A DNA stretch of 64,000 nucleotides from Podarcis pityusensis. Lineage: Eukaryota. Of the stretch, positions 18,396-62,538 are shown in pieces. The DNA is taken from NCBI GenBank assembly GCA_964106645.2, contig OZ067038.1; one strand, written 5' to 3'. A model generated the notes under the pieces. That model made no database searches. It was given only the letters and a program-made list of their open reading frames with translations, and was not told where the DNA came from. A program made the translations under genes and the position numbers. The first letter of the stretch is position 1; the number at the start of each line of letters is the position of its first letter.

Positions 18396-18483
18396 ATGAC
18401 ATCACTAGCCAACGTCATTGCTTCCCAGCAATCCGAGTGGGTCTCCTTCAACGATGGGCTGCTGCTACCGGTTGCCTCCCAGG
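18396..18483 (+). CDS. STON2: Stonin-2 coding exon 1: [29 protein letters not shown](G), first WVxF motif
   Basis: Manual translation matches the recalled stonin-2 N-terminus ([21 protein letters not shown]). 88 nt, phase-1 donor G|GTAGGC. Too short for the ORF track. Confidence 0.93.
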
Positions 18484-19132: not shown

Positions 19133-19272
19133 GCAGGGATGAAGAGCCTGTGGTCCTATAGACGTTGCTGGACTCCAGTTCCCATCAGCCCCAGCCAGTT
19201 TGGCTGATAGTCAAGAATGATGGGAGCTGTAGTCCAGCAATATCTGGAAGGCCACAGGTCTCCCAACTCTGG
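19133..19272. mobile_element. Degenerate palindromic hAT-type MITE
   Basis: cagggatg...ctgtgg...ttcccatca...tgatgggagctgtagtcc...ggccacagg inverted structure. Confidence 0.65.
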
Positions 19273-19948
19273 GATAGAGTGTTTCGGACTCAGAACTAGG
19301 TTGAATTCCTTCTTCAACTCACAGGGAGAACTTGAGTAAAATCTCTATCAACCTATCCTACCTTAAAGCATAGTTATGGAGTTAAAATGGGGTCACCCTA
19401 AGCTCCTTGGAAAGACAGGCTAGATGAAAGTAGCTAAAGGATTCGATTACATGTGGGTAGCTATGTTCAGTTTTTATATACCACCTCAATGTGTTATAAG
19501 AAATTTGACCTAGGGAGGGGAAGCAGCCTTGTGCCGAACTTCTCCTTCTCCTATGTAACATCTAGTTCAGGGATGAGGAGTCTGCAGCCCTCCAGATATT
19601 GCTGGTCTACAAGTCCCTCACTCCCAAGACCAACCAGCCCCAGAATGAGTAGTGGAAACTGCATTTAAGCTGTGTATTTGCCCACCCCACCTTCACATTG
19701 TTTCAGGCAGGGATGGATACTTGCTCAGCATAATGACACTGGGACACAGTATTGCATTACAAAGTCTCTTTAATGGTGGAAAGGAGAATGACTCAACATG
19801 GGCTGCCATATTTCTTATAACAGGTAGTTTCACTCAGAAGCATAAAGCTGTAACATTGCCCTATACACATTGAACATTTACAAATGATGAAAAAGGATGT
19901 TTAAAAATTCCTTGTTACTTCTACATTATATTGTGATTCTTCTTGCAG

Positions 19949-20212
19949 GCCAAGCTGGAGAACCTCTTGAAAGGTTTCTGTCCTCCTCTGATACTTCTTC
20001 TGAAGGCATCCAAAACCTGGATGGAGAATTTCAGACACTTGCACATGCAGAGCTGGGAGATGGAATGGACAAAACTGCTGCAGACTCTGTGTCCGTATGT
20101 TTGCTTGAAAACCACCCGTCTCCAAAGCCTGATCTGTCTTCATCATTCAGCACATGGGTCCAGTTTGAAGATGCACCCTGGCCTAGCACTTCACCAGAGA
20201 ATGCACATACAG
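19949..20212 (+). CDS. STON2: Stonin-2 coding exon 2 (GQAGEPLERF...STWVQFEDAPWPSTSPENAHT), second WVxF motif
   Basis: Acceptor ttcttcttgcag|, donor G|GTTGGG, 264 nt, phase 1-1. WVQFED..W.STSP is a stonin-2 signature. Lies inside ORF 19897..20250. Confidence 0.92.
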
Positions 20213-21871
20213 GTTGGGATGTCACACTAAACCAAAGTCTATTACAGTAATGCTTGCAAATGATTCCAGGTTCAGTCCCTGGCATTTTCAGGTAGGGCTG
20301 AGAGAGGCTCTTGTTTGAAACCCTCGAGAGCCACTTCTTGTGAATAACACCAAGCTGGAATGATCCTGTGATGGAGTAGCAAGAGACTGCATTGATGCAG
20401 CTTGCGTGCGCTTAGATCGTTGACCTCAAGAATAATACCCAACCTGACACAGTTTGGGGGCTTCTGTGATATTTTATTGAGGCTTCTACATACCAGACCT
20501 CTTACGGCTTTGTTCTGCCGGGTAGTTAGTCCCTTGCTAAAATAATTAAGAAGCCATCCCCTAGGCCTTGCCCCCACGCATTCCACAGATATTTTGGCTT
20601 GTTTATTGTCAACATCGCAAGTGAATCACATACACACACACCACATGCACAGAGTGTCTAAAATACTATCTGCTACTCCATATAAACCTACCTTTTTAAC
20701 TGTTTCAGAGACTGTGTTGTTACTCCCTTCAAAGTTGAGATGTTGGCAACTGGAGAAAGGGCATTTTCAGTAGTGATACCCTTGTTGTGAGATTTTGCTC
20801 CTCCAGAGATACTTGACTGGTACATACTTTGCTAACTTTAGAGTACTGGGTAGATATATTATATTATCCTGATATATATATTATTATTATCCTGAATTTT
20901 TAAGGGATGATATGATTCTGATGATTTTTACTGATGATTTTAGCAACACAGGAAATATACTGAGTCAGATTATTTGTCCATCTAACTTACTGTTGTCTTC
21001 TCTGACTGGCAGTGGCTCAACACCTGCTACCTGATCCTTTTTTAGGTGATGTCAGGCTTTGATCCAGGGGCCTTCTGCAGGGGAAGTGTTCCACCACTGT
21101 GCTATTATTTTTATTTAAAACCCCCTGTTCTGTGATTTTAATTCTTTTTTTAAATGCTAATTGTTGAATTTTTAAAGCTTTGTTGTTGGTTTCTTTGAAA
21201 GAATTTGCTAAAAGTGTTATTTTAGAAATAACACTTAATTTTCCCCCCTCCAAAAAAATGTTTAATTATGCAAATGTATTGTGACACTCGTCCTGGCAAG
21301 GGTCACCAATGGCATGGGAAATAGCCATGTCAGTCATACAACTCATATGGTACCCTGATTGCTTATGCTACCAATGCAGCAAGGAACTTGGCCCTGTTTC
21401 AATTCTCTTTCATATTGACATCACAATTCAATCAGATAAACTGCTGGGCAAAGCTGCACCCTGGAATGTAGCAAGGTATGAAAAGTAGAGCTAGAAAAGG
21501 CCTATTGTGACATCTGGATCACACTCCTCTCAAGGACTTTGTCTGCTTCTAAGTGGCTCAAGTAACTAGGACTTTATCTCACATTCTTGGGGAGGCATTT
21601 TCACAGCAGAACAAACTTCACATAATGCCGATTGTGCTATCCGCTCTGAAACTGGCAAGTCTTGAGTAAGAGAATCGTACAGCTGAGGAAGAAGGAAAGC
21701 AATAACTGAAAATGATGAGAGCTTGATGGCATGCTAAAATTGGAACAAATTGTACTATCTTCGCTGCTGGAGGAAAAGTTTGCTATAAGCTCAGGTAGCT
21801 GAAGATTGAGGATGTATGTAATATAACTGGAACAAATTTGGAGAGAGAATTCTCAAGCAAGCTATTCTAGA

Positions 21872-22052
21872 TCTCATCCACATCATACATGTAAAGCATT
21901 GCTTTTAAGAGTAATAATGAATCCTGGGAACCGTGGTGCTAACCTCATAGAGCTGTAATTCCCAACACCCTTAACAAATTACAGTTTCCAGGATTCTCCA
22001 TGACTGTTAAAGTGGTATAATAGTTCTTTAAATGTATGGTGTGAGTAGAGCT
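21872..22052. mobile_element. Palindromic non-autonomous DNA transposon (Chompy/PIF-Harbinger-like). Related remnants near 8100-8220 and 62860-62985.
   Basis: Inverted arms catacatgtaaag...aatcctgggaac / gtttccaggattct...ctttaaatgtatggtgtg. Confidence 0.55.
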
Positions 22053-23717
22053 TGCTTCTAAAGACTATGATGGTACGTTCTTCTAACTGTGATTTTGGAC
22101 ATTTCAGATTATAGATGCTGTTTGCACTTGAGGCTTATAAGGAAACATATCTCTGTTCAGACATTCTGAAATAGTGTGTACAGAGGGGAGATGAGGATCC
22201 CAGTTCTCCTCGCATCCCATGTATTAATAGTCTCTATGCAGAGCAGGCAGGTATGCGGTTTTCATAGGTTTTTTTATACACATGTATAGGAAATGGGTTC
22301 CCTCAGTTCCTGCTTTCTGTAAACACATTTAGGTATTTGCACTGCTTATATAGAACCAGCCACTGTAACTTAGGGTGAAATTCAACACTACACTACTATT
22401 CTGTCAATGCAAATATTTTTGCTTGCTAGATGGAATGTTCTTTCCCATCTTCTCCCCACAGGCTGATCTCCCCAGAGCAGATTTTGGGGAAATGCATGGG
22501 GGGGGGGGGGAGAGCCCTGTTACACTAGCAGAAGTCCTCTTCCAAGACTTCCGCTAGGTTAGTTGAATCTGGCCCATGGAGTTCTCCAATGTGACCCTTT
22601 TCTGCTGGCACCAATTCCCTTAAAACACTCTTAAAACTTCCTGGTAGCCTGGCATTAGGTGTGAGATTGTCACCAGTACTGGGGATGGACCAAACTGTTA
22701 ACTAAGACTGTTTGTTTATCAAAGGGCTAATTGTGTGCATAAGGAAAAGCTGATACATTGAGATCTACACATGCTTGATGATGGTTTCCAAGGACTCAAG
22801 AGATGCTGTTGCTGAGACCTGCCTCTAAAAGGCTTTTACTGTAGGGGTCATTTACCTCAGACCAATTTCCCTGACATTCCTCCCCAGCCAAATTCACTCA
22901 CAACCCAGTTAACTACTGGGTACAATCTGCCTCTGACCCCAAAGCTCCTCTGGTTGTACTTCTGGCTTCTTGGACATTTCCCCTGTTTTAAAAAACCTTC
23001 ATGTGTCCTCTTCCGTTAAAATCTTTACACAGTGCAGCCTATTAGCCTAACTCAGCCACTGACTGCCTTCTTCTGGTCACAGCCACCAAAGCATTGTTAA
23101 CACACCGGGGAAAAATATACCATAATATTCAGGATTTCGCTGTCCACTTTCACCTCAACTTTCTCTGTTCTTCGCCTCACACCTTCCTCATCAACTGTCG
23201 TTCCTGACTGACAGGTAAACTGCCCATTCTTCACTGGCTAGAGCCTCCAACCAATCAGAGCCTCAGACCCATCGAATTTACTTGATCCCGGGCCCGTCTA
23301 TAAATATTAAAAGCAATTATCTCTTTCCCCTTTCGGAACTTGTCTCCAAGCAGCTACTGCTAAACAGTCTTGCAGCATAGTAAACAGCACAAGGCCTTGG
23401 ACTTCGACATTTACGTTCTGACATTAACAGAGGTTGCAGAAACTCATAGACAGACATACACAGCATTCCTCAGTATACAACATGGTAGCAAGTGTTTTGG
23501 TTTTATAGTAGAAGGCTTATAGCAAATGGGGAGCACTGATAGCATCAAATAACCAGCTACCCTGCAGAATACTCAGGCAGCATTTCCTCACTTGAGGGAA
23601 ACTTGATATAAGATGTTCTGCACCATCCAATTCCCTCTTTTGTCATGACTCACCTTTCCAGAACCCTTTTTATGCTGCCTAGTTCCACAAATTTCTTTCT
23701 TTCTTTCTTTTTTAAAG

Positions 23718-23915
23718 CCTTCTCTCCAAAAACATTCTGCTGGACATGTCCCTCTTCGGGATCTTCTGAGAGAAGGCCTCTCACGTCAGACAACAGTTGG
23801 ACAACTACTTCTGAGAACACCAGCAGCCCCAGTTTCACACCTTCCTATACTGACCTGCAGTCCATAAACACTGAAGACCTGACCAGTGGCAGAGCATCTG
23901 CAGCAGACTCAACCG
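23718..23915 (+). CDS. STON2: Stonin-2 coding exon 3 (AFSPKTFCWTCPS...SYTDLQSINTEDLTSGRASAADST)
   Basis: Long pyrimidine tract plus aaag|, donor G|GTAAGC, 198 nt, phase 1-1. Matches recalled human CWTCPS...PLTS.SSWTT.SE.TSSPSF..SYTDLQ. Confidence 0.93.
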
Positions 23916-26900
23916 GTAAGCCAGCTTTGTGCTTCCTTCCCCTTTCATTGGTCACATTTCCCTAAATAAACTGTTAACATTGGAATCTAAATTTGCAATG
24001 AATCCTGGATCAGCCTATTACAAATGCAGTATCATGATACGAGCTTCAGAAGATGGCTCGGTCAACTATAAGTTACCTTATTCTTGGTGCTCTTGCTGAA
24101 CCCATGACTGGCCTACCCATTTTATTAAGTCTTTTAAAGAACAGTTTAACCAAACAAACATAAAACAAGAATAAAAAGTGAAATAAATAAAAGGTATACT
24201 ATATCATTATATGAGTTAACAATTACAATCCTGTTTATACTTCTCTGATGTGCAGGTTTTATTATTATCCAGATGCATATATGCTTATTTTTAACCTACT
24301 ATATTTTGTGTAAAAGTGTTCCAAATGTCTTTATACTTGTCCATGCAAAGTCTACATCTCTAAGCAATTGGTTCATAAGTTGCAAGTGCAGTCATATCTT
24401 CAGTCCACTGATTAAATGGAGCCGTTCACTTATATTTCCGGTGCATCAGTATCAGTCTTTTGGCCCTAGTAAGGGATGAGATGGACTGAGGCAGCCACCT
24501 TGGGTGGCAGAATCCCACGGGGCAGTGCCCCTGTGTGAGCCCCGCCCACCCCACCACCACAGGAGAAGCTGAGAGAAGCAGTGGTGGCTTCCAGTGAGAT
24601 GTCTCCGGAAGCCACCACTGCATGACCCTGGTAAGCAAGGATTTGGCAAATGGGAGGCAGTGAGGTGGCACCTTCCCATTTTGCCTCAGGGCCACCCCAG
24701 CTGTGCCAGTTGTCAAAGAAGACCACTCGTGAGACTTATGAAAATGTTTTACAAATCAATTTAATCTGTAGTTAAAATATTCTAGTTCCTTCAGCACATT
24801 CACCTTTCCTTCACTGACAAGGAGAAACTTCTAGCTCCCCCCCCCCCGGGGGGCAAGAATCTTTTTTTAAGAGCTGAAGAAGATCTGATAACGTTTATGT
24901 CTTTAGCCCTGATATTCCTGCTCTGCCCTTTCCTAGGCCAGATGAGGACTGTGGCCCTGGGGGGACTTTAACCTTTCCCCCCTCCCAAGATGGCTGCTTA
25001 TTATGGGAGGGGGAAATCATGTACCCCACGGCTAAAGGCATTGCATAACTTTTCATGTACTGTTCTTTGGCCCTAAGACAAAGGAAAAAGCAGAGAGAGA
25101 ATCAAGACAACCTATGGAGATATGTGATGAGATCTTTTGACTTTTTTTAAAAAACAACTTTTGCTCAGCTGTTGTGGGGGGCAGACTTTTGGTCAAAGCA
25201 GCAGATCTGAGGGGGGAGTTGTATAACCCTTTCTGTCTGTGCCATTTTTGTAATCTAAATCCCTCCCCCCCCCAGCTGATATGAGCCTTACCTGGGGGGT
25301 GGGGTGGAATACAGATAGATTACCTGCTTCCTCCATAGATTTTGCTCCTGTAGGATAAATAGTAGCTGGGGCGTGATAGGGTTAATTAAACACCCCTCCA
25401 CCCATTGCTGCTGTTCTGATTAAAATCTGAGTCCTCCACAGCTACTTTAAAGCTACATCTGTTTTGGTCAAGAGAGAGAAACAAATTGGCAGACCTGTGT
25501 GATAAAAAATAATCAGAAGTAGATTCTGCCTGCTGGAATGTTAAGCTGTGCCCCTGATATGCCCAGAGGTAGAAAGCACAAATATTTACACTAAAGCACA
25601 TGAAGCCTGTGTTTGATCAAATTAAAAGCTGGACGTGGTCTGTGGCTAATTCATATGTGGCCTACTTCAGGGCAGTGAGGTGAACTTTTGACAAGCTTCA
25701 AGGATAGCTGTCCTAGGTTTAGACCTTCACCTTTCCTAGGTAAAATTTACACAGTCACATACCAAGCAACCAGTGCTATCTGAATATTGTGGGAAGGATT
25801 TGCAAATAGATAAAAGTGTCTTTACAGGATTTATCATGCTGACTTTGGGTCTCGGCTCTGCCATGCAATGTGGAAAGTCAAATATCTTTGCAATGGGCGG
25901 GAGTTCAGTTTGAAGTAGGGCACAGTTGTGTCAGACTTTGTATGGAAATTCTTGGTCTTCTGCTTCTGATTGAGGGGGAAAGAGCAACACAGCACCGAAG
26001 TGTTCAGGTCCACAACTGCAAGATACCGAGCACCCTGGAAAGCTGATTTAAATCCCCAGGAACTTCCTTTTAGCATTACTAACAAGGAATTGGAAAATGT
26101 GAGCAACAGCCACTGAAAAAGTAGCCTGACTTCTAAAGGGTATATGGCTTCAGTGGCTCAAAAATGACTAAGAGTAAGCCAGGACTGGGCAAAGCTCTGC
26201 ACTATGCAGGGCAGAAATGTATGTTTGAAGAGTTTTAGGGCATCACAGTGAGCTGATTTCTCATGGTGAATTAAATACACGACTGAGAATCTTGCACTCT
26301 CTTGATGTGATCTTTCAAGTGGCTGGAGATCAAATTGGTGAGGTTTTAGCAGTAGCACTAACAGCTCTTACTTGTAACTCGTTTCATATGCTCGAGTTAT
26401 GGGAGTGGGTGCGTTGCCAACTATAAACACAAAGGTGGCATTTCCCATCATAATCAAGCAGTGCTTGATCCTGCTCTATCCTTAGGAATGGGCAGGACCA
26501 CACATTGGGTGGGGGGGAGGGAGGGTTCTCATGCTGAAATAAGAGATTCTGCTTCTTTGTAATATAATGTGGTTGCCTCAAAAGCATGGGAAAGGATGAG
26601 GAGATTGTACCGGTAAGAAGCACAAGAATGTGGTTTAGCGATGATGAGAGGTTTAGAGGATCGGTTTTAGGCCTAGCTGTTCTTAAGCACAGGGGGCTAA
26701 TTGGAAGCAGATTTAGTGTAAAAGGAGAAGGGAAAGTCAGGGGGAAATCTTGTAGGCTCAAATGTTGGCTTCTCCTCTTGTATGATTTCTTCCTAGATGC
26801 TCAGACAGGGTCTGTTGCAATGTTTTTTCCACTTGGGGGAAAAATGTCACTAAGATTGAGTATCAGTGTGTGTGGCGCATCATTTTAGATGCCCTGAATC

Positions 26901-28869
26901 CAAGCTGGCCATTAATGATGGGTATAATAATGCATTAGGGATGTCCAATTTAATTCTTGCTCTGTATGATAGTTTGTATCAAATATGAGTCATTCTAACT
27001 TACCTGTTTGGAGACGAGAAAGCCCTAATATATAAATCTTTGTATTTATATGTCAAACCCAAAGTTTCTGATCTTATTATTGAAATCAAATTACCTCTTT
27101 TCTTTCTTGTTAAAAAACAGCCAGGGGACCATGCAGTGTTCACACTTTTAGATCTTTTAAGCTCCCTGTTTTGCTGGATTTTAACCCATTTTTTAATTGT
27201 CCATTCCTGTAGGTGGTCTTTCTCTAATGTTGTTCATGCATAACCTCCTTGCAAATATAAGAAGAACAGTTTGTTTTTCACTCTGGGGCCAACTACTGGA
27301 CATATCAATGGTTTGATTCATTATAGGGCATCTTCCTATGCTCCAGTTTCCCTAGGAGTTTGCTTCTGTCATGAGAAAAAGGAGACAAGAGAGAACAGAA
27401 ATTAAGGATGGGAGGAAATGCCCTTTTTGCTGTAGATCCACGAAAGTAGGGAAACAGGGCTGTTACGACCCAGAAGAGTTCGTATGGAACTCCTAGCCAG
27501 TTGGAAGGCTTCACAGTCAGAGCCTGTTGGAATTGGAAAGAAGAAAAGTAGGAGACTCCTCACTCTTTCCCAATCATCTTATGCTCATGGAATGGCTGAA
27601 TCTGCTGCTCCCAGTGGAGAGATATGAGTTCTAGTTCAGTGGCAATAATTTGGTTCCCTATGACTTTTATTTTAAATCCTTTGGGCAGTTATTACCTCAA
27701 ACTCCAACACTGTTTTTTTGTGGGGTTTTTTATAAAACTTGATAGCGGATTGGAGTTAAGAGTGGGTTAGCTATTAAGAGTTAAACTTCAAAGAAATTCC
27801 TGTGCGTGTTTACTGCAGATTGGGTGATCTCTGCATTACATACACAAATGGCAGCAAAGTTTGAGCTTTTGCCTACTATGAAAGAAATGCAGCGTTACTA
27901 AAGAGGATCTGCTGCTCTGATCAAGAGTTTCTCTGGTGGACCTGACTTTGGGTTATGTACGAGCATGTATCCCATCTTTACACTGGCACACAAGGTTATG
28001 GCATGCCTGTTCACAATACCACGATCAATAGGGTTATTCCTTTAGTGCAAGGTGCATTTTGACTTGTTCTTGGCGACTTGTGTTTAATACAGTTAGTGAC
28101 TCATCTATATTGTTATGCTTTTATAGATCCTATATAGTGCAATAATTCCCTACTTCCCCTTCTCATTAACAAGCTCACACACTCTGGAGGAGAACAAAGC
28201 ATTGTATTTTGCCACTGGGATTCTGGCTTCTTTGGCTGAAATCACCAGTTGGCTTGAAATCTGAGTTCCAGGCTGCACTCGAGTATGTAGGTAGGCGCCT
28301 GTACAGACACCTACTGGCTCCAGCCTTGAGGCTTACAGATAGTTATCGCAGAGGCGCAGAAATGGTAATGGAAATTAAAAAGAGCACTACTGTAATTTCC
28401 TGAAGTGCCCTGAAGCAGGTTTTGGAGCAAAGATGTAATTTCATAGATCTGCATGAATGGTGTGAATGCAGACAATTTAACCCCTGGGCTGCCTTCAGCG
28501 ATTTTGGAAACGGGAGAGAGTAGAACCTTCCTGATGCTATCATGGAAATAATTGATCACACTTCAGATTTAATGCAGAATTGAAAGCATGTTTCCTCATA
28601 AGTGTGACCTGTTGAATTCAGTGAACCTTTTTTTGAATAGTAATATAAGTGTGCTTAGGACTGCAGGATATTTATTTTATTCTGTTTCATTTTAAGGTTG
28701 AAATTACACTGCATCATGTTTAGTATGGAAGAGCCACTGAAGGTACTGAAGTGGATCGCAAATTGCGTTTTTGGCTTAGTTGAAATCCCATTTCAGCAAG
28801 TTACTTATGAGAAGGGGCCTCGCTCCCAGGACTCATGGAAGGGCAATGATCATAAGGAGCTTTGAAATT

Positions 28870-29299
28870 TGTTATTGTTTAGTCGTTTAGTCGTGTCCGA
28901 CTCTTCATGACCCCATGGACCAGAGCACGCCAGGCACTCCTGTCTTCCACTGCCTCCCGCAGTTTGGTCAAACTCATGCTGTAGCGTCGAGAACACTATC
29001 CAACCATCTCATCTGTCGTCCCCTTCTCCTTGTGCCCTCCATCTTTCCCAACATCAGGTTCTTTTCCAGGGAGTCTTCTCTTCTCATGAGGTGGCCAAAG
29101 TATCGGCTTTAGGATCTGTCCTTCCAGTGAGCACTCAGGGCTGATTTCCTTAAGAATTGATAGGTTTGATCTTCTTGCAGTTCATGGGACTCTCAAGAGT
29201 CTCCTCCAGCACCATAATTCAAAAGCATCAATTCTTCGGTGATCAGCCTTCTTTATGGTCCAGCTCTCACTTCCATACATCACTAACTTCCATACATCA
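28870..29299 (-). mobile_element. BovB (RTE) LINE, 5'-truncated 3' end
   Basis: Typical BovB 3' sequence (gtcgtgtccgactcttc..gaccccatggac; tccaaccatctcat; catgaggtggccaaagta; aaaagcatcaattcttcgg). 10-bp TSD CTTTGAAATT at 28860-28869 and 29300-29309. Confidence 0.9.
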
Positions 29300-30984
29300 C
29301 TTTGAAATTACTTGCATGTGAATAGTTCCATGTGAATGTTGACAATCCCTGATAAATGTATTGAGTCCTGGGGCTGTAGGAGGCCACTTTAAACTGTTTC
29401 AGGCCAATGATCCACCTGCCTCAGTATTGTCTCCAATGTTAGCAGCCCTATAGGATTGAAGATGGTCTTTCCCAGGTCTAACTGGAGATGGCAGGGGTAG
29501 AATCTGTGGCCTTCTGCATGTGCTCTTCCACTGAGCTCCAATTCTTCCTCCCCCCCCAAAGTTCAACATTCACTGCTGCATGTCCTTACTTGTGAGCTAT
29601 AGACTGGTAAGTGCTCACAGTCTTCTTTTTAAAAAACAACAACAACATGAATATATCCTCTGGTATACCTCCGTCACTCAGAAAAGGTCAAACTGCATAT
29701 CCATGATTGGATTTTCCTTCTTTGAAAAAACTCACAGGAGAGGAGGGATGTTATAACCTTTTACTTGTTCACCGTTTCCCCAGTCTCATCTCCATCCTTA
29801 AGGTGCAGCTAACTCCCATTAAAGGCAGGGGGGGGGGGATAGTCAACAAGTACATACAAGTGCTGTTAACAGCAGCAAATTTGGAGCGCAAACTGTGTTA
29901 GTGTCTCCCTTTTACTGTTGTTAGCCGCTCTGAGCCCAGCTTTGGCTGGGGAGGGTGGGATATAAATAAAATTTATTATTATTATTATTCACCTGTAACT
30001 CTCTGCAGTGTGCAAGACACCTGTGCAGAGTGTGGACTTCTACATCCATGTTCAAGCAGATTACACGCCTTGTGTTTTATATACAGATTAAAAACACATG
30101 CCTTGTGTTTTATATACAGATTCTAGCTAGTGGAATTGCACCTGTATGCCTCTGAGTGAGAAAGTAAATACTATCTGTATAAGGACTAAGGACTGGGTGT
30201 TAGAATGAGGTGGGCAAAAGCAAGGTGATGGCCATTGTCACTGATTCCGAAGCTCTGCAAAACAGACCTTTCCTGTACTGCAAAAAGACTTGGCTCTGAA
30301 AGTGGGGCAGTTAGATTCCCCCATAGTGCTTTGCAGAGGCTCCTTTGTGGCAGGGTGTTCTCTAATCGTGCAGTATTAGGATCTGGTTGGGAAGCTTTGC
30401 ACAAAAGAACTTAGGGGCTCTGGAGGCTTTGCTTTCATGAACTCATTTCTTCTCCTGCTCCCGGGCTGATTTGTTTGCAGAGGCTCGGTTGCCTCAAGCA
30501 ACGTAATATCAGTGTGAACTATGGGGTATCCTTGGAGATCTGCAGGATTCCCTGCAAACCTTTTCAGCTATTAGCCTTTTCAGAGGATGAAACAAATAGG
30601 CATTTTCTTCAGTAGGAGCTATTGCTTAGTCTCCCCTTCCCTTTTCTTTTCTCTGCCCCACCCCACTTTTCTGAAGTATGTAAAAGCAGCTTGGTGTGTT
30701 TCACAGGCAGATACTGTGAACAGTGTAAAGCAATGCCTTCCATGCCACAATCTCTTCTGTTAGTCCTAATGCCTTTGCGTCAGTCTTTAGCCTTAGGGAG
30801 AAGCAATGAGTGAACTTGCAATATGCCTGACACCTGCCCATGCCTCAGTGCTCTTGCTTTCTCCCTGAACTCCCCTTTCCCCATGCCAACTGGGACCATG
30901 TAGCGGCTACAGTCTTCCTGTTGCTTCTTCTGCTTGCCCCATCCCAGCGGATAGCAGCATGGGACTGGCAGTGACTACCCCCCC

Positions 30985-30987
<3 letters not shown>

Positions 30988-31019
<32 letters not shown>
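30988..31019. repeat. (CA)n microsatellite
   Basis: Directly visible. Confidence 0.95.
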
Positions 31020-31021
<2 letters not shown>

Positions 31022-31627
31022 TTTTGCAAGGCTCTGCAAATCCTATCTTTTCTAGAATTGCAATTTTGTGTGGGTGGTGCAAGTGTTGTGATGGCGGGTG
31101 ATGATGTTGTGTAGTATGGGTGTGTGAATATATTTGTGGTGTGGGGGGATGAATGGGTATAGAGGTTGTACCCTTGGGTTTATACTTGTCCTAAACAATC
31201 ATTCTTTTCTTCAGCATTGGAGCATGAATCGTAAACAACAGCTATAATGCCAAATGAGGGGAATTGCACCCTGTAGTGAGTGAATGATCCAGAACTCACA
31301 TTTAAGCTAAGATATATAATGCCAAATTTGTTAACTAATTCTAACAAAGAGATGTTTTGGTGGGTGGGAAGGTTGTGAATAATTTGAAGTCAGTCATACA
31401 GGAAATTGAACCTGCCCCCATTGCTCATTTCAGTACATTTCTATTTATTTATTTTTTGGTCATAAAATTGTGTATGGACAATGCAAATGGCAGAAGAATT
31501 TCCTTGGAAGGTGATCGCTGACATGATATTAGCCGTGCAAGTGAAAAAGACCTTGATAGTTATGATAGGGCCACTGAATATCTTTGCAAAGCTGCAATGC
31601 TTACTTCATTAATCAGTTTGGTTAGCC

Positions 31628-31755
31628 CAGGCTTCCTCGATCTCAGCCCTCCAGATGTTTTGTTTCCTATCATCCCTGACCACTGGTCCTGCTAGCTAGG
31701 GATCATGGGAGTTGTAGGCCAAAAACGTCTGGAGGGCCAAGGTTGAGGAAGCCTG
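31628..31755. mobile_element. Palindromic hAT-type MITE
   Basis: TIR CAGGCTTCCTC / GAGGAAGCCTG. Perfect 8-bp TSD GGTTAGCC at 31620-31627 and 31756-31763. Confidence 0.88.
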
Positions 31756-33989
31756 GGTTAGCCTTTTGGAAGACTGAATAGGTGCCCCCAATCAAAGAGA
31801 TAGTAAGGATACATGTATCTAATTTATAAAAGCTTATGGTGGCAAGAGCAACTCTAAAAGGAGTATTCTGTCCTGGATGTGAGAGAGGGCGAAATGTCTC
31901 TTTTAAATGCTCTGCCACGTGTATGCTTCATCTGAAAACAAAACAGTCCTTGCCTGTAGATTTATGCATATTTAATTGGTTAGAAACTCCTATGAGAAGC
32001 TGGAAGAACCCTAGTTATTTTTGTTACAACATTAAGAACTGACAGGCACTCTCTTATAGAGCCTTGTGCTAGCAAGATAAGAATTGTGGGAGATAAGAGT
32101 TTGTCTTATGGGTACAGAGTTTATTTTTCTGGAAACTGAAAGTAGCTGAGCTAACAGCAGTGGTGGAACCTTTTCCTTCATTTCTTTCAAGTTATTCCTT
32201 CCTCATTCGTAATTAGTTGGTTTATTATAAAAGTATCACAACCCAGTTATAATGCTTTTTAAGCTCTTTTCTTGCTCAGATATGTAAAACTTTGGAAAGA
32301 GGAGTGCTTATTCTCCACTGGCGTGGTAAGAGGCATTTCTGTGGCAACCCATTAGCCAAAGCAAATGCCATCCTTGTCCACAGCTTTACACAATGTAATT
32401 CCCTGTTATTAAATACAGCTGCAGGTGAGCAAACACTTCTTAAAAATGCAAACGGTTCCCTTTATTCAGTTTTTCTTGACTCTCCGTCTCTTAACCGAGG
32501 GATGAACTCTGTGGCATGGTTATGAATTTTAAAGGGAGTTGAGCAAAGCATTGCTTTGAAATTAGCCTCCATTGTGCCTTCACTGAAAAAGCAGTAGAGC
32601 AGCCCTTCTGCCTCGTAATCTCTGTTAATAAGGGTGACTGAGCACATCTTCATTAAACTGTTGGTGTTGCTGTGATGGGGGATTTATTTGGCCCCAGCCT
32701 TCTTTCAGATTCTGACCTCGATGAATCAGCCGTAATGCTCACACTCTGAAAATCTTTTGTTGCCTTGCTGCTGCTCTGAGAGCAATTAGTAGTAATGCAC
32801 AATATATTTGGGGCTAGGGAAGAACCCCAACACATTCTTCCTTTTCTTCTCTTTTTTTAATGAGGGGGGCCTAGCTGTCATAGAATTCAAAGTTCACTTG
32901 ATTGATTGAGCACCATGTTAGCTCTTGTACCTAAAAACCACAAAAGACCAGGAGAACATGTAATATTGCCCCTAAATCATTTTCTTCCCCCATACCCTGT
33001 TTGCACACTTTGGTTGCCAAATGTAGTGAGTTCTTCCGTGTGTAAAATATAAACCGTTTACCCACAACGAAGGCAATTCTTGCAATATGATGGCCCATCC
33101 ACAGATTGCAGTTCTGAACAGAAGAGCAGATATTGGAAGCAAGCCATGCTCTTCTAAGTGTTTAAGGAAATCAAGCTTATTGCGTTTTTGCAGGGCTGCG
33201 GCTTAAGACTGGTTAGAAGTGGGGGCAAAGAGATTTTCGGGGGAGCAAAAGTTTTGACATGGATATACATTGATGTTCTGCAACCAATCTGTTTTGTTAG
33301 CCACTTTGGGCTTCCCTTGGGAAGGATAAGCAATAGGTAACATATTCAGAACATGAAATATGTTTTGAATTGCAAAACTGGAGGGTGTATTAAGGGGGCT
33401 AGCTATCGAGGGGGTTCTTTTAATACCCCATAATAGCCATATTATCAACGTTTTAGAAGAACCATGGTATGTAGACCCATGCAATGCTTATAGTAAAAGC
33501 TGCTCTGCATGTCAAACCTATGAAGTGGCCCAATATAGGTCATGTGGTCTGAAGAACGCAAGGTAGAGGACGCAGCACACCACTGCTCTGAATGGCACCC
33601 CTACACAGATGTCCATAGTTGACCCTTTTTCTGGTATATTATGAGTCACACTACCCTCTTGTGGCCACAAGGTGGTGTTACCAAACTTACATATTCCACA
33701 ACATGGGCTGAAGCTGCCTTGCATTCAGTCTGTCTTTTGGTTCTTCTAAGTATGGTCAGCACACTGTACAGCTGACACCGCCTCTTATTGCACCACAGTC
33801 AAATATTAGCCACCTTCAGACGTTCGCCCACAACTTTGTGCCTCTCTTCCATCCACCCCCTTCCCTCATGTGCTTGCTTTGGCGCAGAAGTGCTGGCTTG
33901 CATTAAGCCAAAGTTTTCAAATGTGGGACCATGAGAAGGGCTTCATCCCTGGATCCAGGAACTCCAGCATGCTAATACAGGGACGAGCG

Positions 33990-34360
33990 TTGCTCCGAGA
34001 TGCTTGAGTCCCAAGTTGTTTAGGTGGCAGTACTTTAAATTCAGCCCAGAAGCTTATAGACACCCATTGAAGATCTTTCAGTATTATGTGATCCCTGATG
34101 GCCGCTCCAGATAATACTCTGACAGGCACACTTGGCACTAATCGTAGTTTCCAGGTCAGTTTTAAGGCAGGTTCATGTTGAATGTATTGCATTAATCCAA
34201 GTGGGAGGTAGCCAGAGCACAGGTCACAGTGACCAGGTTATCTCTGTCTACGGCAGCCATAGCAGACAAACTTGTCATAGCTGGAAAACAGCATTCCAAG
34301 CCAGTGAAGCACCCGAGTCTCTGATGTCAGCTCCGTGTCAAGTACTTCCAGATTATTAGA
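33990..34360 (-). mobile_element. Old L2-type LINE fragment
   Basis: Minus-strand translation KLRLVPSVPVRVLSGA..RDHI.LKDLQWVSISFWAEFKVL resembles the L2 ORF2 C-terminus (KLQLVQNAAAR...L.W LPV.F...FKVL). Confidence 0.65.
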
Positions 34361-35249
34361 ACATAGCAACCTAAAGAAGACCCTTCTGGAGCAGGCCAAT
34401 GGCCATTCTAGTCCATCATCCTGTACTCACAGCGGCCAACCAGATGTCCTTGTGGAACCCACAAACAGGATCCGAGCACTTGCCCCTGCTGGCTGTCAGT
34501 GTAGACAGTTCTGAGCTCCTAGGGATTAGATCTGGGACCTGCTGCAGGCAACAAGTACTTGTTCTTCCTTATCATTGGCAGAAAGGGATAGATACTGTGA
34601 ATATACACGTGCAGTGTTTTCCCAAATGATGCTTTCGGAATCTTATGTATGGGCTGTCAGAATATCAGTAGTGCTAAGTCTTAAGTCTTGAGAGGAATAC
34701 AGCATGAGAGCGCTGGGATCCCCTTCTGGGTCTATAGTTAAAAGTCAGCAGGTGGTTCTCTTCTAGCAAAGGTTTAAGACTGAAAAGCAAACTTTGGGAG
34801 AGTCGCCCTCTGTCTCTCTCCTAATATATTCATTTGTCATAGGCAGACACACAGCGTAGATCTTAATTCCTGATTTTAATTGAAGTTGTCAGCTGGGGGA
34901 AAGGAGTGATTGGTGCTGATGGCACTGTAAACAAAGCTGCTTTAAGATGTTTCTCCGAATGATTAGTGGGCTGTGTTTTAGCTGGAAGTAATTGTTATCC
35001 TTCCTCAAATATCATTTATCAAAAATGCCACCTGCCAGTGGCAGAATAGAAGACGAGCTAAAGGACCAAACAGGATTTATAATCAGTCCAACATGCCCAG
35101 AAGACAAAGTCTGAATTTAATGTTACCCAAGACAGATAAATTTTTAAGGGGGTTAAAACTTTAAAAACTGAAATGAAAGAAATGCCTAGTTCCTCATAAA
35201 CTGTCATTTGTGGCAATGGAATGATACGATTTGAGGGTGTTTTTGAGTA

Positions 35250-35491
35250 CAGTGGTACCTCAGATTGCATACGCTTCAGGTTACATACGCTTCAGGTTAC
35301 AGACTCCGCTAACCCAGAAATAGTGCTTCAGGTTAAGAACTTTGCTTCAGGATGAGAACAGAAATTGGGCTCCGGCGGCGCGGCAGCAGCAGGAGGCCCC
35401 ATTAGCTAAAGTGGTGCTTCAGGTTGAGAACAGTTTCAGGTTAAGTACGGACCTCCGGAACGAATTAAGTACTTAACCTGAGGTACCACTG
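35250..35491 (+). mobile_element. Tc1/mariner (Tigger-like) MITE, copy 1
   Basis: TIR CAGTGGTACCTC...GAGGTACCACTG flanked by TA on both sides. Confidence 0.9.
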
Positions 35492-35829
35492 TATATGCAG
35501 AGTGCATCTCTCTCACACACCACAGGGCAACCATAGCCTGTCATGTTTCATATTAAAGCACAAGCTTTTCTATCACAAGCTTAAAAGTGGGGTTGGGGGG
35601 CAAACTGCCTTCCCTTCCCCCTCTTTCTGCCCCTTTCAGAAATTGCTGCACACATGCATGCCCACAACACAAAAGGTTATCCAAGCTCCAAGGATTTGGA
35701 GGTGGTTCTTTTGCTGCCCATTTCCTTCTATCCTCCACGGGTGTGCCTTGTTTGATTTGAGAGTAACCTGCTGCACTTTCCCTCCCTCCCTCCCCACCCC
35801 CTTCTGCCCTGCCCACACTAACTGAGCAG

Positions 35830-35999
35830 GGCTGACTGACAGGCAGGCAAACAGCCACGGATCCTGCTCAAGCATGTATAATGCATACCTCCCCACACCA
35901 TTCCCACAAGGCAGCCTCACTACGCAAGCAAAAGGGAGCCCCGGCTGGCTTGGCTGTCGTTCTAAAGGCTAAACTGACACACAGCGCCATCTCCCTGGG
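35830..35999 (+). other. STON2: Candidate alternative first or cassette exon in a locally CpG-enriched intron segment
   Basis: Pyrimidine tract plus CACTAAC plus gagcag|, strong donor GGG|GTAAGA (GT at 36000). One frame reads TGRQTATDPAQACIMHTS, similar to a recalled human STON2 optional exon. Confidence 0.5.
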
Positions 36000-38900
36000 G
36001 TAAGAGCCGCAAGGTCGCCTGGCTTGCTTTGATTTTAAACGGGGGGGGGGGGGGGAGGAGGCAGAGAAGGCTAGCAAGATGGGAAGCGGCAAAACAAGAA
36101 GCAGATGTGGGGGGGGGGAGAGAAAGAAAACTTTTGAGTCTGTTGACCCGTTGCCTGCAATACACTTGAAGCTGTAGTGCTGAAAGACTTAACTGACTCT
36201 GTAACCCGAGAGCGTTGAAATGGGGTCTGGGCTGTTTGCTTTTAACTGGACATTTGAGCCGGGAACCCAGAAAGATGCGAGCGGGTTGCCCTTTGCACAT
36301 CGACGCCGTTTTTTACAAAGCTACTCTTCATGGATCTAGCATTTGAGAAAGTTAGCCTGTAAATGCGGCGGCTTTTACAAAAGGAGCTCAAGGTGTAGTG
36401 GTTTGGTCTGGGTTTTCCCCAGAGAAATCCTGATGCTCTTAGCACACAAGACCATGTTGAATGGAATGGTCCAGGGTTTGTTTCTTGGTTCCTTCTCACC
36501 TTTAAAGAAGCAAGCAAAAAGAAAGGGGGAGGGGAGAAAAGCTGGCCTCTTCTTACAGTAAGATAATTCCTGCTATAATGGCATTTGTCTATGTGTTTGT
36601 TCATGGGGAAATCAAATGCGATTTTCACATGTTAAATCAGTTTTTGCATTTCTCTGCAGCTGTAGTCAAATGCTGATGGCCCCATTGACTAGAAAGGGTT
36701 ATTTATTTATTTTAAAAAGGGCTCCGTCCACATTCTGTACTACCTTAATATTCCAAAGTGGTGCATTCCAGACTAAAAGGTGCTTTGGGTATGACTTGTG
36801 AGAACACCTTTCTGTTAGAGGTTTCCTGAGGGTGCAATGCTATGCTATGCAATACCTGGAAGAAAGGCTGTTTGAATTCAGTGAGACTTTTCTCTGCTAG
36901 CATAAAATATAACTCCTTGTGTGTGAAAAAGAATGCAGGGAGAGTAATTCAAAACAAAAGTCAATGTAGATTCTAGCTTATGCAAGGTTGCCTTCAAATT
37001 ATAAGTATGAATAGATACACAGAGACACTTATATAGACATACTTGTTATTAATAATTGTAAAAACTCTGAAAACTTTGTTGGGGTCTTAGGTTTTGTAAA
37101 TAAGTGAATGTATGAATTGGTTAGATCCCCTGACTGCATTATCTGGAGATGTAACTTCTGACTTTTAATATTTGTTGAACACTCATTGCCTTGGTTTGTG
37201 GAGTAATGAATCATGGAATACATAAGTGACCCGAACTTTGCAAGTGATGCCCCAAGCAAGGAAAGGAAAGGAAAGGTCCCTTGAAGTCAAGCTCATGTTG
37301 TTAGGTTGATACTAGTTTCCTTGAAAAACAAGAAAGGCCTTGCCTGTTCTTATTTTTAAACAAGGCTTCGATCGCCAACCTGATTACCATGAAGAGCGTG
37401 GAAATTCTGGCAAAGCATTTGTGGACACTCCGTGGGGTTAAGATTTTAGTGCACTAAATGATAACGCTTCTTTTTACAGTGCAAAAGTGTTTTGAAAATT
37501 CCCTAAAACACGGTGCCAGGTTTACACCACATTTTTGTGAATTTTCAAAGCGAACGGCAAGGGTACCGTTTATTTCTCCATTCTGTCACCTACTCTTTAC
37601 CATATTGCTTTCTCAAACTTGTAATGCCACATATTTAATAAGTTGAGCTCCATCAAATTATGTGATCTCATCCTTAAATAATTCCTTCCTTTTTGTCTTT
37701 TTAATAGGTCAGAATGTTTCTAAAAGAGAGTCACCTTAAAGCCAGTGGAAGGTTGTTGCAGAGTAAATAAATACAATATACAGCTGGTGAAAATGAGCCT
37801 CCAGCTCCTGTGGCTGGAGTAGATATTTGAAAATAGGGGTGTTACATAAACTAAACTCTGCTCCTTTTTTAAAAGTGAAATGTTGGGTGGGAATGCACAA
37901 TGTGAATCTGTAGTAATTGCTAGTGGCTTTAATTTGTTTTTGTTTTCAATTGGAGTCTGGACAGCATCCAGTCCTGTTATTAGTGCTAGGGCTCTGCCCA
38001 GGACCATGTAAATTACTAATATACTTCAGAGCATGTACAGAGGTGCATTTAAGTCACCACAAATCAGTGGTGCTCTCAGGGCAGATGCCCGGAGCCCCAC
38101 TCAGCAGAACATCCAGAAGGGCCATCAGACATGGTAGGGCTTGTTTACCTAATTTTTAAGTAATGCACATGGCCAGCTAAAGAGGATGGGACATAAGACA
38201 GTTAAGTTCAGAGCCCAAAATTACCTAACTGCACCATTGTCCTTGCTTGACCACCCAAGCCAGCCATCTCACCTAATAAAGCAAGGGTTCCATACTAATA
38301 AGCCCAGCTTTCAGGCAAGCTTCAGTATTGTCTCATCGTTTCTGTGGAAGTTAATCCCCGCAGGGAAGCGTTTCCACAAGTCACTCCCAATATATGAAAT
38401 CATAGCATGATAGAAGGGTTGACACACTTTTTTTCCCCTTGAAGGAATTCTGTGCATATGCTGAGAATCAGTTTGGCTCTGCGTGCCTGAGTCTGCCCTA
38501 TGAGGAAACAGGGATATAAACTCAATCACCATTTTGATTCTTATATTTCTCTTCCACCCTTCCTCCAAGGAGCTCAGAGTGACAAATTTGGATTTTGTTA
38601 AATGGTGGGAGCGACTCTTGGGAACAATACCACGAAGATTTGGTGCTTCTATCGGCCATTGCTTACACTGGAACACCCCCCTCCTAAGAGTAACTCTGAT
38701 GTTAAAAAAAATTACAAGGTGGTGCGTCAAAATTTAACAGTTGGAATAAATGTTTAGCATATTTAAGATGTTAGTCTCTATTTAGGACTACTGCTTTCTT
38801 TCGTTGATATTGGCTAGTTAGGCAAAATGCAGAATCAGCTGTTTAGTGCTGGACAGTACATTCTCAGATGTTATCCTCAACCCCTTCACTAACATCATTG

Positions 38901-41895: not shown

Positions 41896-42422
41896 GGAGA
41901 AGGGCTGCAGCTGAGTGATAGAGCATCTGCTTGCATGCAGAAGGCCGCAGGTTCAGTCCCCAGCATCTCCAGGTAAGGCTGGGGGAGACTCCTGCCTGCA
42001 ACCCTGGATTGCAGCTGCCAGTGTAGGCAGTGTAGGCAGTAATGAGCTAGATGGGCCAATAGTCTGACTCAGTACAGTGGTGCCTCGCAAGACGAAATTA
42101 ATCTGTTCCGCGAGTGTCTTCGTCTAGCGGTTTTTTCGTCTTGCGAAGCAACCCTATTAGCGGCTTAGCGGATTAGCGCTATTAGCGGTTTAGCGGCTAT
42201 TAAAGGCTTAGCGGCTTAGCTGCTAAAAGGCTATTAGCGGCTTAGCGGCTTAGAAAAAGGGGGGGGAGCGAAAAAAAATCTCAAGACTCGCAAGACATTT
42301 TCGTCTTGCGAAGCAAGCCCATAGGGAAATTCGTCCTGCGAAGCAACTCAAAAACGGAAAACCCTTTCGTCTAGCGGGTTTTCCGTCTTGCGGGGCACCA
42401 CTGTATATCAACTTCCTATGTA
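41896..42422 (+). mobile_element. Squam3-type tRNA-derived SINE interrupted by a MITE
   Basis: Head ggagaagggctgcagctgagtgatagagcatctg...ggttcagtccccagcatctcca. The 3' end gactcagTA|MITE|TA..caacttcctatgt is split by the insertion. Confidence 0.8.
42075..42403. mobile_element. Tc1/mariner-type MITE with an internal TTAGCGG(C) tandem array
   Basis: 20-bp TIRs (CAGTGGTGCCTCGCAAGACG, 19/20 match), TA TSD, CpG-rich. Confidence 0.9.
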
Positions 42423-45233: not shown

Positions 45234-47378
45234 TTGTTATTGTCAAGGCCTGACTCCTCCTTTACATTCCTGCTATTCTAACATGGTATGTGTGTGAGAG
45301 ATTCACTGCAGAACACACTCTATGATTCCTTATGTTCCAGCCGGGTTCTGCTTATTAGAGGAGGAAGGTAGCCGTACCCTGGGGCAGGATGCTGCTTAGT
45401 CACACACACACCATCCTGCTGCCCAAGACATGTGCTCCCTCTTGTCTCCCCTCTGTCTGGGCCTGGTTGTTTGTTGCTAACACTGAAGCAGTCTGCATTG
45501 TGATATAATTGGTCCTAAGAAACTACCAGAGAATTTAACACATTTTTAGCTTTTCTGCTTCATTTCCAGTGGTTTGTGATGTGCCCCCAAATAAGGCATT
45601 TTATTTGTGATTTAGTTGGTGCTATGTGTGGCTCTATTCTTTTCTCTGTTTTTTAAATCTTTTAATTACCTCTCTTCCTCTTGCTACTGTGCAGCAGTTC
45701 ACCCAATGGTGAACAGCAATGCTCTGCATCATTAGGAGACACTCACTGAGGGCTGGGTAGGGATTTGGAATTGATGGACTCATAGAACCAACATGGCAAA
45801 TTGTTCCACTGAATCTTGTTTGCCTTGCTGCTATAGCAACAGTCTGAGACCATTATTATTTTTATCCTGTGAAGTTGTTCAGAAGAGCCTGCCTTGCAGA
45901 TGGCTGTGTTGTCTGCGGTATAATTGCTTTTCAATGAAGCATCTTCATCCTGGAGAAAAAGGAGCAGATGCAAAGCAGAGACTTGAAAGAGAAGGTATAA
46001 TTGTCAAAAAAGGAGGTATGGTGGAGGAACACTCCCAGTGTATATCGGATCAGCAGAGGAGTGTTGTCTTGCTTGAGAACACCGGGATAAAGCAAGATGT
46101 TTCTAGATTTAATTAATCAGATTATCTGAATGATCGCTTACATCCATGTGAACCTGCTGACATGGCATTGACATCTTTGAAGGCTCTACTCTCTGGTCTG
46201 TCACTAGAGAAGCTTAGGTTGGCCAGGTACTTCTCAATGGGGCCTCACAATTGGTGGAATTCACTTCTCTGGGAACTCTCATTGGTAACTCTCTTCTGTC
46301 TCCATCAAAACATCTTTAAGACTGCAGAAAGAAGAAACGCCATGGTACACCTGCATCAGCACAACCAGGCATCTTCAGCTGCCAAAAACATTCCTCTCCC
46401 ATACTGGTTTCTACAACCACAGCAGGCGCTGTAACTCCCACAACCATTTGACTTTACTCCTGAAGATGCACTCTTCCATTGTCTCCCAAGACAAGACAGA
46501 TGCTAACCAATGCATTTTTACTCTGCAACACCATATTACATTGGTCATACACATTTTATTACATTTTTTAAAAATTATCTGTTGTGGTGGTATTTTGAAA
46601 TGTTATCACTTTTCTGTTAGCTTATTACGCCTCTACTCAAAGATCTGATTTGTTACTAGACTGAGAGCAAAGTGTTGTATTTAATATTGAAAGCTCTTAA
46701 CAACTTGGGACCAGTTTCCTTGCAGGATCACCTCATGCTATGTGTGCCCACACAACTTCTTTAATATGTGGAACTTAGTCTGTATCTGTGAGGAAACAAT
46801 ATTTTAGTGTGGCAGCACCCGTGCTCTGAAACTTCCTGCCTGTCGACATCAGGCAGGTGCCTTTATTGTACTGTTCTAGACACCTGTTAAAAATATTTTT
46901 GTTTTGGAAAGCCTACCCAGACATGTAAACTTAACTCTTCTTCCTTTATTAGCACCCAACAGCCCATTAAAATATTTTATAACAACTGACAGTTACACTT
47001 GATAACTTTAATAAAAATACACAGTAATACAGCTGAGAAACACAGAATTAAAATACTAGACCACACACACAATCAGGCAATCGTAAGAGGTCTAATAAGG
47101 AAAAACTTTGCCACATTTTCGTGATTATTTGGATTATTAGAGACTAAGAAGGACCAGTAGGGAAGGGTTGACTGTTGTCAGGTGTAACATAAGTGGCACA
47201 TGCTGCAGGTTTTCCTATCTGTCTTCAGCCTGTGCTGGTTGAAGGTAATGTCCATTGGAACAATTGGAACATTTCAGTGTTCTTGGCAAATCACAGCTGA
47301 AAGTGGTACAACAAATGACTGCTTTCTATAATACTATACCAGTAAGTTTTTGCTGTGGCTGAATGCCAGATTATAGAT

Positions 47379-60672: not shown

Positions 60673-62538
60673 ACAATTCCTCATCCCTTCTCGAAGATGA
60701 AGAGCTAGGCATGGAGGCAACCAGCTGGCAGCTGAATAGCACATCTGTAAATGGCCATAGTGAAACCCCAACAACAGCTCGTTTCCCCAGCTGGGTGACT
60801 TTTGATGACAATGAAGTCAGCTGCAATTCTCCATCCACTTTATCCCCCGTAAAAACAGATTCCCCACCATTAGTAGCAACTGCAGCAGCAGCAGCAGTCA
60901 CAACAACACAGATCACAGATGTGAACTCTCTTACCCTCTCCTCATCCTTTAAGAAAAGGGAACGCCCCAGAAGTGCATTGGCTGACCTCCCTAAAATTCA
61001 GAAACTAGACCTTTCCTCAATAACCAGCTTGCCTTTGTTTAGTGGGACACCCCCTTGGAGTGCTACTAACCCTTTCCTTGACGAATCCCTGAGGGATGTT
61101 CAGCCTTCTCCTATCAACCCGTTCAGCTCTTTCTTTGAAGAACGGGACAGGCATTCTCAAACCTCTCCCATTTCTGGCAGAAACCAGAGAGACTCCCTCA
61201 TTATCCTCCATCAGGAGCCTGACTGCATCAGCTTTAATGAGCCAAGTAGACACCTCAGGCACAGAGATGCTGTCGAGCAGCTCAAGCAACTCCAGATCGG
61301 GGACCCAGATCAGCTGAGCAGTCCTACTCTGCCCGACGATGACCCCACAGTGCCAACTGAGCTATACAGCACCGTGTCCTTTCTGGGGCCACCTCCGCGA
61401 AAAGATGGCTGGCCAATGATGCTGAGGATACCAGAAAAGAAGAACATCATGTCATCTAGACACTGGGGGCCGATTTACGTCAAGCTGACCGAGAGCAGGT
61501 ACTTGCAGCTCTTTTACGAGAAGGGATTGGAAAAGCCTTTCAAGGAATTCAAGCTTGACATCAGCCATGAGATTTCAGAACCCAAACTCCAGAACTATGA
61601 TGAGAATGGGAGGATACACAGTGTGAGGATAGATCGCATCACCTACAAGGAAAAGAGGAAGTACCAGCCAAAGCCTGCTGTCTCTCACATAGCGGAGAGG
61701 GAGCAGGTTATCAAGCTGGGTACCACCAGCTATGAAGACTTCCTCAGCTTCATCAGGGCGGTCCAGGATACACTAATGGATTTGCCTGCCTCGTCAACAG
61801 ACCTGAGCACAGTGGGATTGAACTACCAAGAGGAGGAAATCACTGTGGATGTAAAGGACGAGTTCTATGGCACCTTGGCCAAAAGAGACAATAGGATTTT
61901 GCAGCACAATGTGTTGACCCGAGTGCACGTTCTCACTTTCCTTTCTGGCCTGGCGGAATGCAGGCTGGGTCTCAACGATGTCCTTGTCAAAGGGAACGAA
62001 ATCGTCTCGCGGCAGGACATCATGCCCACTACCACCACCAAGTGGATTAAGCTGTACGATTGCCAGTTCCACTCCTGTGTGGAGGAGGAGGCGTTCGCCA
62101 GCGCCCGCGTCATTCAGTTTAACCCCTTGGACGCCTGCAGGTTTGAACTGATGCGCTTCAGAAGCGTGTTTTCCGAGAAGACGTTGCCTTTCACCTTGAG
62201 GGTTGCAGCTAGCATCAACGGCGCTGAGGTGGAGCTCCAGAGCTGGCTGATGATGTCTCCGGGGTTCTCCTCCAACAGAGACCCTCTCACTCAGGTCCCC
62301 TGTGAAAATGTGATGGTCCGCTACCCAGTGCCACAGGAGTGGGTGAAAAACTTCCGCAGAGATAGTGTCCTCGGGGAAAAGTCTTTGAAAGCAAAGGTGA
62401 ACAAAAGCGCCAGCTTTGGATCCACCAGTGTGTCCGGTTCTGAGCCAGTAATGAGAGTAACACTAGGAACTGCCAAATATGAGCATGCCTTTAATTCCAT
62501 CGTGTGGAGGATAAATCGGCTGCCCGACAAAAACTCTG
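60673..62538 (+). CDS. STON2: Stonin-2 large coding exon: WVTF motif, two NPF motifs, stonin-homology domain and most of the mu-homology domain
   Basis: Acceptor ttctccatatag|AC (DNSSSLLEDEELGM), donor G|GTGGGT after RLPDKNS, 1866 nt. DGWPMMLRIPEKKNIMSSRHWGPI and AKYEHAFNSIVWRI identify stonin-2. The gene continues beyond the window. Confidence 0.97.

Follow-up and report, generated by a model that had tools for sequence, protein, structure and literature searches.

A conserved element in intron 3 of lizard STON2 as a probable internal promoter and first exon for a short stonin-2

The 64-kb window, that is, the whole stretch of DNA analysed, contains the stonin-2 gene STON2 on the plus strand. 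The product of exon 4 is 99% identical to Zootoca vivipara stonin-2, and the gene is therefore the lacertid STON2. It encodes the parts of a stonin-2 orthologue, namely Stonin2_N (PF12016) and mu-homology (PF00928) domains, three WVxF motifs (at about 18438 in exon 1, 20155 in exon 2 and 60792 in exon 4) and two NPF motifs, both in exon 4 (at about 61068 and 61116). Exon 3, which exits in phase 1, joins exon 4 in frame across intron 3 (23916-60672; 36,757 nt), and the exon-4 methionine codon (60711-60713) lies in a strong Kozak context. A CpG island at 5900-7300 (O/E about 1), upstream of the first coding exon, is probably the main STON2 promoter. The element considered here lies within intron 3; the relevant features are as follows.

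18396..18483, plus strand: coding part of the first coding exon of STON2, with WVxF motif 1, placed by translation; an RNA-type contig from a related lizard links it to exon 2.
19949..20212, plus strand: STON2 coding exon 2, with WVxF motif 2; ends read from AG/GT.
23718..23915, plus strand: STON2 coding exon 3, with a phase-1 donor at 23916.
35248..35493, no strand assigned: MITE-like repeat bounded by 19-nt inverted ends; it lies outside the module, the C-rich tract following about 285 nt downstream; very deep repeat coverage.
35778..35815, plus strand: C-rich tract with CACCC/CCCTCCC boxes and a minus-strand G4 pattern, identified by composition; putatively promoter-proximal.
35828..35829, plus strand: weak candidate acceptor, formed by the latter of the two AGs in GAGCAG; the corresponding region belongs to the exon body in mammals.
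35839..35900, plus strand: conserved core, common to mammals, a turtle and iguanian lizards (35860-35900 also to frogs), in three frames across the species' models.
35874..35972, plus strand: upstream ORF 1 (32 aa), ending inside the exon; the homologous ATG opens the Pogona and Mixophyes models.
35881..35999, plus strand: exon part of upstream ORF 2, 48 aa if spliced to exon 4, with its stop at 60698-60700.
36000..36005, plus strand: consensus donor GTAAGA (GGG/GTAAGA), the probable exon end; the end of the Pogona model ranks this donor 2 of 490, and Anolis ends rank it 13 and 24 of 490.
36041..36118, plus strand: two intronic G runs past the donor, at 36041 (15) and 36109 (10).
60673..62538, plus strand: STON2 coding exon 4, with Met 60711, WVTF (motif 3), two NPF motifs and the stonin-homology and mu-homology domains.

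The preliminary description of this intronic patch gave correct coordinates throughout (intron, tract, CACTAAC, AG, TGA, donor, the stop reached from ATG 35881, Met 60711 and the phase 2 exit); it missed a second upstream ATG, at 35874, whose stop at 35970 lies inside the exon. The patch had been called non-repeat, and a search of the lizard's own genome returned a single match, the patch itself. The local CpG enrichment also reported is present in that 20 CpGs in 631 nt tie the highest count among 58 intron blocks of the same size, but it falls below island level: a CpG-island promoter was rejected at an O/E of 0.44 and a GC content of 0.54 (criterion, O/E of at least 0.6 and GC above 50%). 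The most CpG-dense 300-nt patch of intron 3 lies at 42070-42405 and by eye resembles an inverted-end element with short tandem repeats, not a promoter. The MITE-like element at 35248-35493 also contains internal repeats of 16-23 nt, and its family is very abundant in RNA reads of a related lizard.

The C-rich tract (25 C and 9 T in 38 nt) is, judging from its composition, likely to be promoter-proximal rather than a splicing pyrimidine tract. The proposal that CACTAAC acts as the branch point of a normal acceptor at AG 35828 is not supported. A branch point should precede the tract, but CACTAAC (35816-35822) follows it, 6 nt upstream of the AG; of the 16 nt leading up to that AG, 3 are T, versus 8-12 at the three real acceptors of the gene (two of those placed one base off). 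Single motifs alone are within chance: intron 3 contains 17 G/GTRAG donors and 38 copies of GCATG, which we take to be the RBFOX motif (one in the core, at 35872), yTnAy occurs 685 times (intron 3/window) and CACTAAC four times in the window. An Rfam search gave a single chance-level match, to a bacterial leader (E 0.14). Conservation across species, in contrast, is beyond chance.

Placental STON2 models found in a search confined to long isoforms and in cluster listings carry a 57-aa (171-nt) insert between exons 3 and 4, which is 46-54 aa long in squirrels, lagomorphs and pangolins. Homology of the patch to this mammalian exon had been suggested and is borne out, as the mammalian inserts match intron 3 best at 35839-35898, with 70% identity over 20 aa and an E value of about 1e-6 for the best of them. 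At the nucleotide level, the bonobo peptide scores 33.8 bits at the element, and no other place in the intron exceeds 12.2. The insert is present in bonobo and orangutan records and absent from the two human records seen (P0270 and P0271). A frameshift-aware scan left out segments shorter than 12 aa, the 76 of 536 proteins without an exon-4 motif and three Pogona records (tested separately). In it, none of the 179 other intron blocks scored as high as the element for 35 of 43 distinct internal inserts, and the same was true for 12 of 50 distinct non-exon-3 segments, seven of these 12 being truly N-terminal. Internal use was found in 62 models, comprising 60 named placentals, one mammal-like model and one turtle UniRef model. 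A snapping-turtle (Chelydra) model contains the same core; the internal Chelydra model was used for conservation only, because its last residues resemble the translation of a pyrimidine tract. Exon 3 is skipped, and exon 2 joined straight to the element, in models of chimpanzee, marmot and ground squirrel (P0260, P0212 and P0319).

Conservation is limited to about 60 nt, irrespective of frame, and the distance from core to donor is similar in amniotes. A donor-anchored scan, in which positive control P0124 worked, P0123 failed and one mammal row (P0257) was affected by a wrong junction parse, supports homology of the donor itself in Pogona and does so weakly in Anolis; in mammals and frogs it found none (ranks 32-252 of 490). 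Sequence comparison thus identifies the patch as this lizard's version of a STON2 exon that also occurs in frogs, in a turtle and in placental mammals; its age exceeds what was first supposed.

The alternative-first-exon reading put forward in the preliminary description agrees with stonin-2 models of lizards, frogs and some mammals, in which the same element is used N-terminally. The X2 models of Anolis carolinensis and A. sagrei (z 10-12) and the X2/X3 models of Pogona (E 1.5e-6) begin inside the element and run into exon 4. Up to six frog models show N-terminal use (Engystomops, Dendropsophus, Leptodactylus, Ascaphus, Eleutherodactylus and Mixophyes). Engystomops has a z of 7.8 and ranks first against 179 other blocks, Dendropsophus and Leptodactylus also rank first, Ascaphus and Eleutherodactylus rank third, and Mixophyes is weak (rank 38) in the whole-segment scan, where the element ranks first for the Anolis and big-cat segments. 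Trimmed peptides of four frogs, chosen after inspection, score 19.5-27.8 bits at the element versus 12.5-15.1 elsewhere. Among mammals, N-terminal use occurs in models of big cats (P0284, P0290 and P0297) and narwhal (P0439). The big-cat N-terminus of P0284 matches 35800-35819, upstream of the mammalian acceptor, and for this peptide, which was picked by eye, 3 of 36,755 intron positions score as high. The match suggests transcription beginning further upstream and continuing across the acceptor. Peptide comparison also indicates that the lizard probably lacks roughly 12 nt that hold the mammalian AG. Panthera has both N-terminal and internal-use models, all of them automatic predictions. No bird, snake or crocodilian model among the records seen uses the element.

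The frame of ATG 35874 is read in the Pogona, Engystomops and Mixophyes models, that of ATG 35881 in Anolis, Ascaphus, turtle and mammals, and the third in Dendropsophus, Leptodactylus and Eleutherodactylus; lizard models moreover shift frame along the exon relative to the window. Conservation of frame across species, proposed earlier as a check, is therefore not observed, and since the models read the element in all three frames, the constraint is on DNA or RNA, not on peptide. A conserved intronic enhancer or factor-binding core could be under such constraint, in which case transcripts spliced to the strong exon-4 acceptor would be low-level by-products and the short protein would have no role of its own. 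This is unlikely. It would suit a conserved stretch of only about 60 nt that ignores frame, the out-of-frame ATGs preceding Met 60711, and the unrelated first-exon models in the same intron of other lizards (at 45968, 53803, 55611 and 57129). However, unlike those species-specific first exons, the same element recurs as an N-terminus in lizards, frogs and mammals; its core-to-donor spacing is shared by amniotes, and this lizard keeps a consensus donor.

None of the ATGs at 35400-35999 in this lizard starts a frame that continues into exon 4. The suggestion that the exon is non-coding stands for this lizard but not for every species, since an in-frame N-terminal extension is read from it in models of Anolis, Pogona and frogs. 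Internal inclusion gave a stop or a frameshift for 7 of 7 acceptor positions tried, and none gave an in-frame phase 1-1 inclusion. The TGRQTA frame contains a TGA at 35833-35835 and leaves the donor in phase 2. Between 35836 and the donor the mammal-like frame has no stop, as would be seen if the element were a normal mammalian-type cassette, coding and in frame, that only an assembly error has disrupted; a homopolymer error whose correction would restore phase 1 had been considered. Entry phase, TGA and exit phase all disagree, however, and therefore no single assembly error explains the broken frame. Together with the independent frame mosaics of Anolis and Pogona and the presence of all 50 sampled words in one run (possibly the assembly's own source), this makes a broken mammal-like cassette scarcely credible.

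Conserved poison exons are known, for example in SR-protein genes, and DNA conservation without conservation of frame is also typical of them, as is a stop on inclusion. The element might accordingly be viewed as a poison cassette between exons 3 and 4, entered through AG 35828-35829 and leading by frameshift to the stop at 35970 and nonsense-mediated decay. Inclusion from 35827 or 35830 does lead to the stop at 35970, a long way ahead of the following junction (the poison-exon criterion being more than 55 nt), and the core has one GCATG (35872). Frame-breaking inclusions are invisible in protein databases, and decay substrates would be missing from protein records. The element nevertheless differs from poison exons in its weak acceptor, with a T-poor tract and a misplaced CACTAAC, in the in-frame inclusion of its mammalian homologue, and in its N-terminal use in many models, with the big-cat model reading through the acceptor region from upstream. 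A poison exon is quite unlikely. Protein records hide whether exons 1-3 are in the transcript, so that N-terminal use may represent an annotated frameshifted internal inclusion.

Among the sequencing runs listed, no RNA run contains the sequence as a whole, and four RNA-like contig sets contain a small share of it (0.08-0.10). RNA of a related lizard was mapped over 17500-37000 from three raw-read runs and one of these contig sets (X1). Raw-read depth in the bin 35728-36378 is 1.3-1.4; the next bin has 0-0.06 and the exon-3 bin 0.2-0.4. The covered bin includes the two G runs, to which spurious reads may be drawn, and it has reads on both strands. A contig row in this bin is a 20-letter repeat match. 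The depth fits expression of the element and is a candidate signal. Repeats dominated the mapping, and 2546 loose-end, 55 joint and 5959 piece rows fall outside the listing; among the rows listed there was no junction at 35999 or 35830 and no start pile-up.

None of the 12 lacertid protein records uses the element. Four of the 12 records in this set use other intronic first exons, which implies that the intron yields first-exon models cheaply. Single-species first-exon models in intron 3 lie at 45968-46014, 53803-53859, 55611-55694 and 57129-57188 (Zootoca, Podarcis muralis, Elgaria and Lacerta agilis); the Elgaria first exon is still recognisable in the window but with a stop. The unused element in lacertid records, the missing junction among the mapping rows listed and the MITE at 35248-35493 would agree with an exon that is active elsewhere but in lacertids has fallen silent or is in decay, left as a relic next to a recent insertion. 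Such a relic is very unlikely: a non-coding first exon adds no new N-terminus and is easily absent from protein lists, the core and donor are intact, and the bin has some RNA read depth.

The best explanation, with a probability of roughly 0.6, is that the element comprises an internal promoter and an alternative first exon that is spliced from 36000 to exon 4, giving a short stonin-2 with one WVxF motif from Met 60711. Transcription would start at or just past the C-rich tract, at about 35790-35830, the donor at 36000 would be joined to the exon-4 acceptor, and translation would begin at Met 60711. A transcript from the element would contain two upstream ORFs and then Met 60711. Both upstream ATGs (35874 and 35881) have A at -3; being out of frame, they would be expected to damp output from Met 60711 and may leave little short protein. 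A start at Met 60711 would drop WVxF motifs 1 and 2 and keep WVTF, both NPF motifs, the SHD and the mu-homology domain; the one-WVxF product predicted in the preliminary description is supported.

WVxF motifs bind AP-2, and the mu-homology domain binds synaptotagmin 1 (PMC5770824 and PMC2373488, each available in part). With its NPF motifs and mu-homology domain, the short protein would reach AP-2 mostly via Eps15. In human record P0271 the exon-4 Met has residue number 204, and if full-length human stonin 2 is, as we take it to be, 905 aa long, a start there gives 905-203 = 702 aa. A short stonin-2 is thus predicted here but is not a novelty, as a 702-aa protein was the first form of human stonin 2 cloned, by 5' and 3' RACE (Martina et al. 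2001, PMC2174325). The available part of that article describes an endogenous stonin 2 species of about 88 kD in five cell lines, neuronal and non-neuronal, and binding of the 702-aa protein to AP-2 only indirectly, via Eps15. The 702-aa form resembles the predicted lizard short form in its two NPF motifs, SHD and mu-homology domain and in having the length of a protein started at the exon-4 Met; in the same part of the article, its 5' exon is unnamed and isoforms are not treated (PMC2174325). The 702-aa cDNA may be an incomplete clone. Later work describes a longer form of stonin 2 with W15, W102 and W232 (PMC2373488, available in part).

The closest class for the element is the hybrid first-internal exon (HFE), although both uses in one species are known from Panthera predictions only and not from the lizard. 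HFEs are first in some transcripts and internal in others, and like them the element would be one exon with both uses (PMC11797052 and PMC8769537, each available in part). In the available text of PMC11797052, HFEs are common (80,000 human hybrid exons), their starts cluster at the acceptor position, and one route to them is a first exon gaining an acceptor. HFE comparisons in these texts are between human and rodent, whereas the element extends from frogs to mammals; moreover, the lizard retains a product only when the element serves as a first exon. One text supplement file of each article contains no mention of STON2, and the large exon tables may list the exon.

The history of the element would be similar, with first-exon use ancestral in tetrapods and with placentals gaining an acceptor and an open frame to produce a hybrid first/internal exon. 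Parsimony on the models favours first-exon use as ancestral, with N-terminal use spanning frogs, lizards and mammals among records seen that include no marsupial or monotreme. It is likely that placental mammals turned an internal first exon into an extra coding exon. The idea that the coding status of the mammalian exon is secondary is probably right, internal use being nearly all placental (60 of 62 models).

RefSeq/GenBank isoform models place a homologue of the element ahead of exon 4 (Anolis X2, XP_008115854; Pogona X2/X3, XP_020633439; frog X2; Panthera X4; Monodon X4; 955-aa placental isoforms). These models are automatic predictions and coding, each in its own frame, whereas this lizard has no in-frame ATG. 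A literature search, with subscription journals outside its scope, returned no title on an internal STON2 promoter or short isoform. Databases already contain the parts, and the class too is known; the search found no publication linking the parts.

Stonin 2, an endocytosis adaptor, sorts synaptotagmin 1; what it does in non-neuronal cells is unclear according to a review (PMC6912373). If the internal-promoter reading is true, a conserved short isoform with weaker direct AP-2 binding would provide a testable handle on the non-neuronal role, and the 702-aa and ~900-aa descriptions of stonin 2 would be reconciled. It would also bear on knockout, siRNA and antibody designs aimed only at N-terminal exons, and would offer a deep example of a first exon recruited as a coding cassette. 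A wider reading is held only tentatively, the odds being somewhat against all its parts holding jointly: STON2 would have had an internal promoter since the frog-amniote split; the short stonin-2 would bind cargo and Eps15, and AP-2 mainly indirectly; the human 702-aa, ~88-kD protein would be a genuine, probably non-neuronal isoform and not an incomplete clone; and the placental 57-aa cassette would be a 5' leader that gained an acceptor, a dated instance of a first exon becoming a coding one.

Short-isoform N-termini ahead of exon 4 in turtles and alligators (P0168, P0170-P0172, P0174, P0176, P0153 and P0159) do not match the element, and further conserved internal first exons may exist in these groups. 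A TFIIA domain (PF03153) is present in three amphibian stonin-2 models (P0216-P0218; 1200-1320 aa), which in this respect resemble the STON1-GTF2A1L read-through.
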